Shown here: positions 49,495 to 56,100 of the stretch, piece by piece
How positions within the stretch are numbered: the stretch's first letter is position 1
How the letters are laid out: every line of letters begins with the position of its first letter
Source: Escherichia coli
GTDB taxonomy: Bacteria; Pseudomonadota; Gammaproteobacteria; Enterobacterales; Enterobacteriaceae
Reading direction: 5' to 3' (one strand)
Assembly (NCBI RefSeq): GCF_024502345.1
Contig: NZ_JALDNN010000002.1
DNA: 64,000 nt
Program-made: the position numbers and the translations under genes
Notes under the pieces: generated by a model
The model's database searches: none
What the model was told of the DNA's origin: nothing
The model's input: only the letters and a program-made list of their open reading frames with translations

Positions 49495-49532
49495 GGGGTC
49501 GGTTCCGGCTGAGGGCGAAATGACACCCTAAG
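49495..49532. repeat. Tn3-family 38-bp terminal IR (GGGGTCGGTTCCGGCTGAGGGCGAAATGACACCCTAAG) overlapping tnpA stop
   Basis: GGGG...CTAAG architecture with the tnpA stop codon inside the IR. Confidence 0.7.
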
Positions 49533-52419
49533 CTTTCGGTTCCTTGGGCCAAAGATATTCGCCAGTCAGTAGAATGTGCGCCCAGCCCAATGGGGATATG
49601 TGGGGAAGAAATTCAGGGGGAACATCCAACCCTTCGTTCCGCCGCTCCGTGACGGCATGACCAAGATGGACGGTATTCCAGTAAATGATCACCGCAGTCA
49701 ATAAATTGAGCCCAGCGATTCGGTAGTGCTGCCCCTCTGTCGTGCGATCGCGAATTTCCCCCTGCCTCCCGATACGGAGCGCATTTTTGAGCGCATGGTG
49801 GGCCTCTCCCTTGTTAAGACCGATCTGAGCACGCCGCTGCATGTCCGTATCCAGGATCCACTCAATAATGAAAAGGGTCCGTTCAATACGACCAACTTCA
49901 CGAAGCGCAACTGCAAGGTTGTTTTGTCGTGGGTAAGAAGCGAGCTTGCGCAGGAGTTGGCTGGGCCTGATTTTGCCAGCGGTCATCGTCGCGGCACAAC
50001 GGAAAATATCAGGCCAGTTCGCAACGATAAGATCCTCCCGGGCTTTTCCACCTACCAACTTGCGTAACTCCCTGGGGGTCGTATCGGGATTAAATACGTA
50101 CAACCGCTTCGATGGCAGATCCCTGATTCGCAGAACGAGATTGTAGCCGAGCAGGCTACTGGCTCCGAACAAATGGTCGGTGAATCCTGCTGTATCGGCA
50201 TACTGTTCGCGAACATGGCGACCGACCTCGTTCATCAGTAGTCCATCGAGAATATACGGTGCCTCGCTCACGGTCGCCGGGATCGACTGACAAGCGAATG
50301 GCGCGAACTGGTCGCTTACGTGAGTATACGCTTTGAGGCCGGGAACAGAACCATATTTGGCATTGACCATGTTCATGGCTTCGCCATGCCGCGCTGTCGG
50401 GAAAAACTGACCATCGCTCGATGCTGACGTGCCCATCCCCCAGACGCGTGACATCGGCAGTTTACCCTGCGCGGCCACCACAATTGCCAATGCCTGGTTC
50501 ATGGCTTCGCTTTCAACATGCCAGCGGGCAAGGCGTGAGAGCTGCCAGTAATCATGCGTGTTTGTAGCTTCCGCCATCTTACGCAGGCCCAGATTGAGCC
50601 CTTCAGCGAGCAGGACGTTGAGCAGACCGATCCGGTCGCGACATGGAGCCCCGGTTCTCAGATGGGTAAACGCATCTGTGAAACCAAGGGCTGCATCAAC
50701 TTCAAGCAGCATGTCGGTAATCCGAACGGACGGCATTCGGCGATACAGATCCAGTATGAGTGCCTCGGCACCATCCGGCACGTCTGCTGTCAACCTGTCG
50801 ATCCGCAACGTTCCATCTTCTATGCTACCGTGCGGAATAGTGCCGTTACGGGCAGCCCGGGCCAGCCGCTTAAGAGCGATCGTGAGTCGCGCCTTTCTGT
50901 CTGCCAGCCAATCCTGTGGGTTGGAAGGCACGGCCAGTTTTGCATTTTCCTGCGCCGCGATCATCGGCACCAGTACCTGCTTGAGGTCACCATAGCGGCG
51001 CGAATGAGCGAGCCAGACATCTCCGGAACGAAAAGCATCCCGGAGGTGAAAGAGTACCGCCACTTCCCAAAGACGGGTATCTCCTTTTTCCTGAGCTCGT
51101 AAATGACGGTTCCATTTGGAGCTGGGCCGCAGGAAACGCCTTTCTGGCGATGCAACACCTTTCATCTCTCCGATCGACAAAGCTGCTGCTACCAATGGTC
51201 CGGCGACCGGCGCGGCTTCGAGCTTCAGACAGCGCAACATGCGGGGCGCATAACGACGAAAGCGATGGTATCCCTGCCCGACATATGCAAGAGGCTCATC
51301 GGCTAGCGTGTTGCTGAGTTGAGTCCCTGTCGCTACCAGTTGAGCGAGCCGGTCCCATGCAACCGAACTGGCGACAGCCATCTCCAGCGGGGTTCCGTCA
51401 CTGCGGGCCTCAAGCAACGAAGCTCCCAGCGCGGTGAAGGTACGGATCGTATCCGTGAGTGTGGCTTTAGAGCCGGAAATTGTTTCGTCATGCTGGCGCT
51501 TCGCTTCCCGCCAGGTTTTTCCTACGATCCTGTCATGGGTTTCGACTATGGCATCAGCAATCGCCGCTTCCCACTCCACAACACAGACGGCAAGGATCGC
51601 CCAGCGGCGGTCCGAAGTGATGTCACGCAAACCGTCGGTGAAGTAGCGTTCACCCTGCCGACGCAGCCGGGCAATGCGATGGGCAGGTATGCTGGCCAAA
51701 GCACTATGATTGATATTCAGGGTACGCAGAAATTCGAGCCTGTCGAGCAAACGGTTAGCAGCAGCCGAGTTGTTACCAACCTCGAAGTTGCGAAGCCAGA
51801 TGAAACGACTGATATTGCCGGCGAGCATTTCACTCAGAAGTTTGTCCAGGTGATCGCGAACATCCGCTGTTAAATTTTCCGCAATCCGCGTTTCAATCCG
51901 CCGCTCAGCGGCGACCAGAGCATCCGCGCACAAGCGCTCGATTGTCGATACTGCGGGCAGAATGGTGGAAGTTTCCCGACACCGCACAATAAAACGATGA
52001 GCAAGATCCTCGTTTGATCTGGCATCTTCGGCCTGGCCGAAAGTCCACTCCCGCAGATCACGGGCACCACGGCCCGTGAAGGTCTTGTAGCCGTAAATTT
52101 CGCGCAGCGTGTCCATGTGCTGCTGACGGGTTTGGCGCCGTGTGGCATAAGTGAGAAGCGCATCAGCCGGAACTCCAAGCTGAGCACCGACGAAGGAAAG
52201 GACTTCACGCGGGATCATCTCACCAGGAGCCAGTGCACGGCCCGGATATCGTAAGGCACAAAGTTGCAGGGCAAAGCCAATCCTGTTTTCCGGTCTGCGG
52301 CGCTGCCTAATGTTTTCCAGGTCATCATCGCCCAGCGTGTAGAACTTCAGTAGCGACAGTTCGTCCGTGGGCAGATCGAACAGCGCTGCTCGCTGCCGTT
52401 CGGTGAAAATATGGCGTCG
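49528..52419 (-). pseudogene. tnpA: Tn3-family transposase TnpA, 5'-truncated by IS26 (about 960 of ~1000 codons remain)
   Basis: 896-aa track ORF with upstream frame open to the IS26 boundary; conserved C-terminal blocks (...GMGTSASSDGQFF..., ...LSPLGWAHILLTGEYLW...). Confidence 0.9.
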
Positions 52420-53239
52420 GGCACTGTTGCAAAGTTAGCGATGAGGCAGCCTTTTGTCTTATTCAAAGGCCTTACATTTCAAAAACTCTGCTTACCAGGC
52501 GCATTTCGCCCAGGGGATCACCATAATAAAATGCTGAGGCCTGGCCTTTGCGTAGTGCACGCATCACCTCAATACCTTTGATGGTGGCGTAAGCCGTCTT
52601 CATGGATTTAAATCCCAGCGTGGCGTCGATTATCCGTTTCAGTTTGCCATGATCGCATTCAATCACGTTGTTCCGGTACTTAATCTGTCGGTGTTCAACG
52701 TCAGACGGGCACCGGCCTTCGCGTTTGAGCAGAGCAAGCGCGCGACCATAGGCGGGCGCTTTATCCGTGTTGATGAATCGCGGGATCTGCCACTTCTTCA
52801 CGTTGTTGAGGATTTTACCCAGAAACCGGTATGCAGCTTTGCTGTTACGACGGGAGGAGAGATAAAAATCGACAGTGCGGCCCCGGCTGTCGACGGCCCG
52901 GTACAGATACGCCCAGCGGCCATTGACCTTCACGTAGGTTTCATCCATGTGCCACGGGCAAAGATCGGAAGGGTTACGCCAGTACCAGCGCAGCCGTTTT
53001 TCAATTTCAGGCGCATAACGCTGAACCCAGCGGTAAATCGTGGAGTGATCGACATTCACTCCGCGTTCAGCCAGCATCTCCTGCAGCTCACGGTAACTGA
53101 TGCCGTATTTGCAGTACCAGCGTACGGCCCACAGAATGATGTCACGCTGAAAATGCCGGCCTTTGAATGGGTTCATGTGCAGCTCCATCAGCAAAAGGGG
53201 ATGATAAGTTTATCACCACCGACTATTTGCAACAGTGCC
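52420..53239 (-). mobile_element. IS26 copy 3 (820 bp), transposase variant, no TSD
   Basis: 14-bp IRs; flanks tggcgtcg vs gcgagaag. Confidence 0.97.
52472..53176 (-). CDS. tnpA: IS26 transposase variant (M58I, G184D relative to copies 1 and 2)
   Basis: ...[10 protein letters not shown]... and ...[10 protein letters not shown]... versus ...APEMEK... / ...KRIIGATLGF... Confidence 0.95.
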
Positions 53240-54471
53240 GCGAGAAGGTTTTCAGGCCGGATTTGCGCGGCAAACCTGTCGTCGTTCTCAGTAACAACGA
53301 TGGCTGCGTTATTGCCCGGAGTGCTGAAGCCAAACGGCTGGGTATAAAGATGGGAACCCCCTGGTTCCAGCTCAAAGAGGCGCAGTTTCCTGAAAAATTG
53401 TACGTTTTTTCCAGCAACTACGAGCTCTACGCGAGCCTGAGTAACCGTGTGGTCGCCCTGCTGGAAGAGCTGTCGCCCCGCGTCGAACAATACTCAATTG
53501 ACGAATGTTTCCTGGATGCCCGGGGAATTGGCCACTGTATGGATCTGGAGGATTTTGGCAGGCAGCTGCGTGGGCATGTTCTCAGTGGAACCGGACTGAC
53601 GATCGGTGTCGGCTTCGGCGCCACAAAAACACTGGCCAAATCGGCGCAGTGGGCGTCAAAGGAATGGCCACAATTCAGTGGGGTGCTGGCGCTGTCGCCC
53701 GAAAATCCACGCAGAACGGCAAAATTACTCAGCCTGCAGCCGGTGGAAGAAATCTGGGGCGTAGGGAACCGGATAGCGAAAAAGCTGCACGTTATGGGGA
53801 TCACCACTGCCCTGCAGCTGTCGCTGACGAACCCTACATTTATCCGGAAAAACTTCAACGTAGTGCTGGAGCGCACGGTACGTGAGCTGAACGGCGAGAG
53901 CTGCATTTCGCTGGAGGAAGCGCCGCCGCCGAAACAGCAGATTGTCTGCAGTCGCAGCTTCGGGCAGCGGATCACCACCTACGAAGAAATGCGCCAGGCC
54001 GTCTGCCAGTATGCCGAGCGCGCGGCGGAAAAGTTGCGCGGTGAGCGACAGTACTGCCGGCATATCAGCACCTTCATCAAGACATCCCCTTTTGCGGTTA
54101 ATGAGCCGTATTACGGTAACGTGGCCACGGAAAAACTGAACACCCCTACCCGTGACACCCGGGACATTATCGCGGCAGCGGTCAGGTCTCTGGACAGGAT
54201 CTGGCTCGATGGCCACCGCTACGCAAAAGCGGGGATAATGCTCAATGATTTCAGTCCGAACGGCGTCGCGCAGCTGAATCTGTTCGATGACGTGCAGCCA
54301 CGGCCGCACAGCGATGCGCTGATGAAGGTACTCGACGGCATTAATCATTCCGGACTCGGGAAAGTCTGGTTTGCCGGACGGGGTATTGCGCTGGACTGGC
54401 AGATGAAACGGGAGATGCTGTCACCGGCATATACCACCCGCTGGAAGGAGCTGCCGGTTGCCCGTTTCTGA
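53240..54471 (+). pseudogene. umuC: second UmuC-family Y-polymerase gene, 5'-truncated by IS26 (no umuD partner)
   Basis: Reading resumes at ...[20 protein letters not shown]... right at the IS26 end; about 16 N-terminal codons missing. Confidence 0.9.
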
Positions 54472-54549
54472 CCGTCGAAATGACAGACGGGACTTGCCGC
54501 AAGAGCTTACTTTACCGATCATACAGATGACTTGTCTCAGGGGGGAACC

Positions 54550-54801
54550 ATGACAAATATCATTCTGTGTGATGTGACTGCCAGCATCAGCGAACTTAAA
54601 AACGATCCGGTGGCCACCGCCAGTGCCGGCGGCGGCTACCCGGTCGCGATTATTGACCGCAACCGCCCTGTTTTTTATTGTGTGCCCGCGGCTCTGTATG
54701 AACAAATGCTCGATGCGCTGGACGAAAAAGACCTGGTGCAATTGATAACAGAACGTCAAAACCAGCCGCTGCGTGAAGTGGATCTCAATCAGTATCTGTG
54801 A
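54550..54801 (+). CDS. type II antitoxin-like protein (Phd/YefM/YafN family)
   Basis: ...TASISELKNDPVATA...PVAIIDRNRPVFYCVPAALYEQMLDALDE... resembles YafN/Phd from memory. Confidence 0.6.
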   Translation: MTNIILCDVTASISELKNDPVATASAGGGYPVAIIDRNRPVFYCVPAALYEQMLDALDEKDLVQLITERQNQPLREVDLNQYL

Positions 54802-54854
54802 TGTGCTCCGGTGCGAGGAGCAAGGAATGTATTAAATCAATGTTAAGGAACAAT

Positions 54855-55160
54855 ATGGGTAGCAAAATCGCAGGTGTGGTTTTCTTATTCTTCACTGTCT
54901 GGGGAATGGCTTCAGTGATTGAATTGCAGTACTGGCGTAACGCTGATACCTATCCTGTCTGGCTGACAAAACATCTCCGGATCTCTCCCGAAAATAACGA
55001 AAAGAGCCTGATAAGGATAGGAATGGAAACCTTTGACAAGGTATGTGGTGATAACAGGGGCCTCCTTGCCGTCACCCAAAAACAAAACGGTATGTTTATG
55101 CGCTGTGATGATTCCCCCGGATTTTTTTCATGGTTCAGCGGCGTTTACAAAGTCAGTTAA
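54855..55160 (+). CDS. small protein with N-terminal hydrophobic segment (101 aa), unknown function
   Basis: ATG 54855 with AAGGAA RBS; MGSKIAGVVFLFFTVWGMASV...; not RelE/ParE/YafO-like. Confidence 0.45.
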   Translation: MGSKIAGVVFLFFTVWGMASVIELQYWRNADTYPVWLTKHLRISPENNEKSLIRIGMETFDKVCGDNRGLLAVTQKQNGMFMRCDDSPGFFSWFSGVYKVS

Positions 55161-55633: not shown

Positions 55634-56100
55634 GTGCCGACGATGCAGGTGGGACCGTGGTCCCAGGCAGATTACCTGACCGACGATGCAGGTGGGACCG
55701 TGGTCCCAGGCAGATTACCTGACCGATGACGCAGGTGGGACCGTGGTCCCAGACAGATAACCTGACCGACGACGCAGGTGGGACCGTGGTCCCAGACAGA
55801 TTACCTGACCGATGACGCAGGTGGGACCGTGGTCCCAGACAGATAAGCTGACCGATGACGCAGGTGGGACCGTGGTCCCAGGCAGATAACCTGACCGACG
55901 ACGCAGGTGGGACCGTGGTCCCAGTCAGATAACCTGACCGATGACGCAGGTGGGACCGTGGTCCCAGACAGATTACCTGACCGACGACGCAGGTGGGACC
56001 GTGGTCCCAGGCAGATAACCTGACCGATGACGCAGGTGAGACCGTGGTCCCAGGCAGATAACCTGACAGACGATGCAGGTGGGACCGTGGTCCCAGAGAG
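55634..56100. repeat. sopC: sopC-type centromere: about 11 tandem 43-bp repeats each with TGGGACCGTGGTCCCA inverted repeat
   Basis: Tandem units ...cgatgcaggtgggaccgtggtcccaggcagattacctgacc... Confidence 0.9.

Follow-up and report, generated by a model that had tools for sequence, protein, structure and literature searches.

The window, a 64-kb stretch of Escherichia coli DNA that we analysed at its full length, carries two short open reading frames, ORF-A and ORF-B, between the remains of a umuC gene and a sopC centromere-like array (Table 1). A first-pass annotation made from the letters alone had described both frames and their sopC neighbourhood. Their coordinates, lengths and plus-strand orientation were confirmed, and so was the neighbourhood, in which the array gives way to sopB and sopA.

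Table 1. Features of the locus in the window, and genetic contexts of ORF-B family members at other loci.
Feature	Position	Strand	Description
Large Tn3-family transposase ORF	49528-52218	-	Directly upstream of IS26
IS26 transposase	52472-53194	-	Adjoins truncated umuC
umuC (Y-family polymerase)	53167-54471	+	5' end cut by IS26; from the ORF list and comparison with intact umuD-umuC in L003 and L026
umuC/ORF-A spacer	54472-54549	+	Counterpart of the stbDE promoter/operator region, degenerate
ORF-A	54550-54801	+	83 aa (MTNIILCDV...NQYL); ATG 54550, TGA 54799-54801; StbD-type Phd/YefM antitoxin gene
ORF-A/ORF-B spacer	54802-54854	+	53 nt; includes the ORF-B Shine-Dalgarno AAGGAA 54845-54850
ORF-B	54855-55160	+	101 aa (MGSKIAGVVFLFFTVWGMASV...); ATG 54855, TAA 55158-55160
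sopC centromere-like array	55637-56096	.	43-bp unit x 10.7, then sopB and sopA on the minus strand
ORF-B family context, IncHI1 plasmids			Adjoins a RepB-type initiator
ORF-B family context, contig with KfrA and TraX genes			
ORF-B family context, metagenome contig	L021 459-2323		38%-identical homologue between a relaxase C-terminal fragment and a umuC-like gene
ORF-B family context, probable integrative element			Integrase, SprT and PcfJ genes
ORF-B family context, several short metagenome contigs			

The same 901-bp stretch recurs at 99-100% identity in many plasmids, mostly of Klebsiella and E. coli. The carrier backbone is mostly IncFIB by PLSDB typing and comes mostly from Klebsiella; in the sister plasmids that we inspected, which PLSDB types as IncFIB, the genes follow the order umuD-umuC-ORF-A-ORF-B-sopC-sopB-sopA-repB, and ORF-A and ORF-B are kept together in about 535 plasmids. 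PGAP labels ORF-A as 'plasmid stabilization protein' or 'Phd/YefM family antitoxin' and ORF-B as 'hypothetical protein'. In the window itself, umuD is absent and the first ~14 codons of umuC are replaced by IS26 (52472-54471), and the 434-aa ORF annotated as a 'Y-family DNA polymerase' is an IS26-umuC fusion and probably a pseudogene. With umuD and the start of umuC removed by IS26, any SOS-driven read-through into ORF-A and ORF-B would have been lost in this plasmid.

ORF-A is antitoxin-like by sequence and belongs to the StbD type of Phd/YefM proteins. Its match to Pfam PF02604 (PhdYeFM_antitox) is weak (i-E 7.7e-4) and its match to PHROG 2268 'antitoxin' is strong (6.9e-19), while NCBIfam YafN (4.4e-7) and NCBIfam phd_fam both came in under their model cutoffs. 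The Pfam and PHROG matches, together with annotated full-length homologues, place it in the Phd/YefM family, and the likeness to YafN and Phd that had been read from the sequence at first is borne out by the Pfam, PHROG and (below cutoff) YafN matches. Outside the umuC-linked lineage, every full-length relative examined has 83 aa and is 62-69% identical to ORF-A; they come from Serratia plasmids and chromosomes, an E. coli IncK2/Z plasmid and a Logan contig. At each of these loci (Serratia, Logan-contig and IncK2/Z), the antitoxin gene is followed by a 95-aa RelE/StbE toxin gene with a 4-nt overlap, read as ATGA in the Serratia loci. The 95-aa product matches Pfam ParE_toxin, reaches the NCBIfam RelE_StbE cutoff and aligns over its full length with E. 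coli RelE structures (E=1e-29). Sampled plasmid tblastn rows at 64-69% identity (E. coli, E. albertii, Raoultella) likewise had a RelE/ParE toxin annotated under the match, and so did rows at 43-47% identity from Klebsiella, Acinetobacter and Vibrio plasmids; the exception among the sampled rows is Pantoea H97, which matches query residues 1-72 only and has no annotated toxin. An IncX1 relative (40% identity) is also paired with a RelE/ParE gene, here with an 11-nt overlap; we read this neighbourhood and the IncK2/Z one directly. Experiments have confirmed StbDE as a type II pair whose ORFs overlap (PMC11878559; PMC3332091).

The toxin half of this arrangement is missing from the window. When the window was aligned as DNA with three paired loci, homology spanned the whole antitoxin gene and was lost right after its TGA. 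Instead of the overlapping downstream RelE/ParE gene of a stbDE or relBE module, with its 4-nt overlap, a 53-nt gap follows ORF-A. No RelE/StbE-like sequence was found in the 64-kb window by tblastn (best E=0.31) or by a six-frame hmmsearch --max (best E=2.9). A weak StbD-like tblastn match at 51872-51997 on the minus strand lies inside the Tn3-family transposase ORF and was discarded as spurious.

The region upstream of ORF-A has also diverged from the module. The paired loci carry 16-27-nt upstream palindromes of AGACCTGTTAACAGGTCT type around a -10-like box, which are putative operators. Between 54460 and 54560 of the window, no inverted repeat of at least 7 nt was present, only GACTTG half-site-like motifs, so that the window locus lacks the palindromic promoter operator or operators of stbDE and relBE modules. 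At the threshold of the scan, the sequence upstream of ORF-A yielded no sigma-70-like site.

Across the lineage, PLSDB tblastn matches to ORF-A fall into bands of ~825 records at 95% identity or more, ~964 at 90-95% and ~744 at 80-90%. From these BLAST identity bands, sampled rows and one inspected example per state, roughly two thirds of the lineage copies appear to be broken, either truncated or frameshifted. Sampled rows of the 90-95% band are copies cut at residue 68. In L003 (NZ_CP041084.1, 3889-5087), the equivalent of window position ~54745 carries an inserted IS200/IS605-type element, with a tnpB-like ORF, that cuts ORF-A after about codon 65, and ORF-B is deleted; the PLSDB bands and sampled rows suggest that no other state of the locus is as common. 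Sampled rows of the 80-90% band hold a two-piece, frameshifted ORF-A, of which pKCTC2242 (L004) was the inspected example. ORF-A is kept in L002, L030 and L034, with ORF-B either replaced or carrying a nonsense codon. Where it is replaced (L002/L016, CP052521.1, and L030), an opposite-strand GmrSD/DUF262 pair stands in its place, and similarity to the window stops at ~54845, about 10 nt before the start of ORF-B. Cargo appears to be swapped at the site between the antitoxin gene and sopC.

Selection on ORF-A seems to have relaxed within the lineage. Its differences comprise 6 non-synonymous and 3 synonymous changes, for an omega of ~0.6 on a base of only 8-14 substitutions per gene; between paired homologues, omega is 0.04-0.07 with saturated dS. 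Under an omega of 0.07, the 6:3 count has a binomial probability of 0.002. Because the substitution counts are tiny and dS is saturated, we use dN/dS only as supporting evidence. Taken with the broken copies, these values lead us to infer a decay of ORF-A function.

Another reading of the same copies is that ORF-A is retained as a stand-alone gene, with ORF-B unrelated to it, and serves either as an anti-addiction factor that neutralises StbE/RelE toxins from plasmids competing or co-residing with its own, or in the domesticated role of a DNA-binding regulator. Anti-addiction roles have been proposed for orphan antitoxins in Klebsiella (PMC7192599), and stbDE modules with 64-69% identical antitoxins occur on E. 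coli, Raoultella and Serratia plasmids, for which common hosts are possible; cross-neutralisation, however, is uncertain at 62-69% identity. The ~825 PLSDB plasmids of the uppermost band have ORF-A intact, some of them with ORF-B replaced, and the C-terminal, toxin-binding half of the protein is about as conserved as the rest and no more diverged than the N-terminal half. Since the gene is intact there and its C-terminal half shows no extra divergence, ORF-A could still function. The apparently broken majority of copies, the within-lineage omega and the absence of a recognisable promoter or operator nevertheless weigh against retention, and we consider a stand-alone role unlikely.

The position of ORF-B relative to ORF-A depends on the choice of start codon. 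A second in-frame ATG, at 54801, shares its A with the ORF-A stop codon (TGATG) and would extend ORF-B to 119 aa (54801-55160); a start that overlaps a stop in this way is a geometry typical of translational coupling. This ATG has no Shine-Dalgarno sequence, whereas ATG 54855 is preceded by AAGGAA, and divergent ORF-B homologues start close to their transmembrane segment. For these two reasons, we judged ATG 54801 to be the less likely start. The 119-aa form is present in UniProt as F1C5W9 under the label 'RelE/StbE replicon stabilization toxin', which was most likely propagated from its position beside an antitoxin. No terminator-like site was predicted between ORF-A and ORF-B, so the two could be co-transcribed.

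The toxin label finds no counterpart in the protein. ORF-B has no match in Pfam, NCBIfam, PADLOC or PHROGs, and none of 19 members of its family has a Pfam match. With respect to RelE/ParE in particular, there was no match to PF05016 or RelE_StbE and no RelE-like fold match, and hhalign gave a probability of 0.2% against StbE, so that ORF-B resembles a RelE/ParE toxin neither by profile nor by fold. The first-pass annotation had seen no RelE, ParE, YafO or Doc features in ORF-B, and the empty Pfam and NCBIfam searches and the hhalign result agree with it. A literature search under the protein accessions returned nothing.

ORF-B nevertheless belongs to a family of its own. An exhaustive HMMER search with a limit of E<=1e-3 recovered 28 representatives, the most distant at 25% identity. 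They share an architecture of one N-terminal transmembrane helix, or three in forms of 170-180 aa, and a conserved domain of ~75 aa; in the three-helix members, a positively charged loop precedes the last helix. After the helix comes the motif E-x-L-x-W-x-N-A-x-x-Y-P-x-W-L and then VCG...NG-x-F-x-RC, with two cysteines, and ORF-B has the helix followed by both motifs. The family alignment (A2) holds eight invariant residues (Y33, P34, C64, N78, G79, F81, R83 and C84), and 16 of 17 members have exactly two cysteines after the helix. The conserved domain of ORF-B is of alpha/beta type, and the AF2 model of the protein is confident (pLDDT 88.8).

These features suggest that ORF-B is most likely a bitopic inner-membrane protein in an N-in/C-out topology, with a domain that is predicted to be probably periplasmic and probably stabilised by a C64-C84 disulfide. 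In its architecture, ORF-B departs from a single-helix membrane-depolarising peptide: it is 101 aa long, and its helix is followed by a conserved, folded and probably periplasmic domain. An envelope-facing accessory function would be our guess for its role, and the protein would not be expected to be toxic.

ORF-B variants are often frameshifted at homopolymers (alignment A1), at A5/A4 55078-55087, C5 55114-55118 and T7 55122-55128, and some of them return to frame further on. Such frameshifts may reflect errors of long-read sequencing, pseudogenes or tracts prone to slippage. One plasmid carries a nonsense codon in ORF-B.

Homopolymer frameshifts in many variants, the nonsense codon and the lack of a database family are what one would expect if ORF-B were a chance reading frame in spacer DNA between the antitoxin gene and sopC. 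However, homologues at only 25-50% identity keep the eight invariant residues, the length and the architecture, the AF2 model is confident and the Shine-Dalgarno sequence is well placed. Conservation across the family effectively refutes a chance origin, which we regard as highly improbable.

Divergent members of the ORF-B family were examined at ten loci on plasmids, a probable integrative element and short metagenome contigs (Table 1). At none of the ten did tblastn or hmmsearch find a Phd/StbD-like ORF, and no neighbour is common to them. Two upstream proteins were considered as partners and rejected: a 97-aa protein at L017, whose ribbon-helix-helix hint is very weak (E=0.23), and a protein with a RelB/DinJ-like N-terminal domain two genes upstream at L019. 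As candidate antitoxins, both were too weak and too inconsistent. About 292 PLSDB records fall into the <60% identity class of ORF-B, and both of those examined are of IncHI1 type. In these IncHI1 loci (L024 4767-5282, L025 4806-5309), the protein is a three-helix form of 167-171 aa, ~45% identical in the common domain, beside a RepB-family initiator. The ORF-B family may travel with RepFIB-like replicons; in the window lineage it lies near sopABC and repB. The metagenome contig L021 is a second, independent umuC adjacency of the family.

These contexts bear directly on whether the two ORFs make up a non-canonical type II pair, in which an antitoxin that lost its RelE partner in a swap would have been re-partnered and would now neutralise or repress a membrane- or periplasm-acting ORF-B. 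Phd/YefM antitoxins pair with several toxin folds, and the two genes lie on the same strand, 53 nt apart and with no terminator-like site between them, in ~535 plasmids that have both. Horesh et al. remark that coding sequences beside orphan antitoxins are possible candidates for novel toxins (PMC7192599). Losses in the lineage take ORF-B with or before ORF-A, and never clearly ORF-A alone: in P0013, ORF-A is deleted, but ORF-B is frameshifted too. No lineage plasmid with ORF-A deleted and ORF-B intact was found, so the comparative data alone leave some room for a dependence of ORF-B on ORF-A. The family nevertheless occurs at the ten other loci, including IncHI1, with neither a Phd-like gene nor a common neighbour, and its conserved domain is predicted to lie outside the cytoplasm, which would put it beyond the reach of a cytoplasmic antitoxin. 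Moreover, ORF-B lies clear of ORF-A behind a Shine-Dalgarno sequence of its own, it is itself often frameshifted or nonsense-bearing, and the operator palindromes are lost. A re-partnered pair therefore seems improbable, clearly more so than a stand-alone ORF-A. If it did exist, with a StbD-type protein as antidote or repressor, ORF-B would found a new class of envelope-acting toxins, a prospect to which we give slightly less credence still: such toxins would have a transmembrane anchor and a disulfide-bonded periplasmic domain and, within a type II-like module, would act beyond the cytoplasm.

We therefore favour, with a probability of roughly 0.8, the reading that the locus is an orphan StbD-type antitoxin gene beside an unrelated gene for a small membrane-anchored protein, and not an addiction pair. 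The first-pass annotation had offered a non-canonical addiction pair with a membrane-acting toxin and, as a fallback, an orphan antitoxin whose neighbour is an unrelated small exported protein. The former is not supported, given close relatives of ORF-A that are paired with RelE/StbE, an ORF-B family found elsewhere without a Phd-like neighbour and the folded, probably periplasmic domain of ORF-B; the fallback is supported by the loss of the toxin and by the independence of the ORF-B family. We envisage that a former stbDE (Phd/YefM-RelE) module sat on the mostly IncFIB-typed backbone and that ORF-A is its surviving antitoxin half. The RelE-type toxin gene that once overlapped the ORF-A stop would have been lost, and different DNA with ORF-B now abuts that stop. 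Left with no cognate toxin in cis, ORF-A would have been drifting, as relaxed selection, the vanished operator palindromes and the broken copies in sister plasmids suggest. ORF-B would be an independent gene that became a neighbour by recombination, from a family that moves with plasmids, and with at least one probable integrative element, in the absence of an antitoxin partner.

The locus is present in thousands of sequenced resistance and virulence plasmids of Klebsiella and E. coli, where its labels are inconsistent; ORF-A alone appears as 'plasmid stabilization protein', 'Phd/YefM antitoxin' and 'hypothetical protein'. As the evidence indicates no working stbDE module, surveys of plasmid stability or of toxin-antitoxin loci should leave the locus out of their tally of addiction systems. 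The ORF-B family, which is conserved and structurally confident and has no Pfam entry, offers a modest target for functional work.

Among known systems, the closest to ORF-A are the StbD/StbE modules of IncX1 (R485-type), IncI2, IncK and Serratia plasmids, which are likewise plasmid-borne among maintenance genes. StbD of the Serratia and IncK loci has the same length as ORF-A (83 aa) at 62-69% identity, and the IncX1 'plasmid stabilization protein' is 40% identical. The window differs from all of these in having no stbE/relE gene, in homology that stops at the antitoxin stop codon and in its missing upstream palindromes. ORF-A also bears a weak profile likeness to the antitoxins of YafN-YafO and Phd-Doc, through YafN and PhdYeFM_antitox, but its nearest relatives are RelE-paired and ORF-B has no similarity to YafO or Doc. 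With Hok, TisB and similar type I toxins, ORF-B shares an N-terminal hydrophobic helix. Those toxins are typically shorter than ~60 aa and consist of almost nothing but the helix, whereas in ORF-B, at 101 aa, conservation is highest in a folded domain, predicted to be extracytoplasmic, that holds the two invariant cysteines. Finally, orphan antitoxins are common in K. pneumoniae (PMC7192599), and there, as here, a homologue of an antitoxin from a valid pair is uncoupled from its toxin and a non-toxin coding sequence occupies the toxin slot. Beyond those orphans, the breakpoint, the states of decay and the independence of the neighbouring gene's family have been worked out for the locus in the window.
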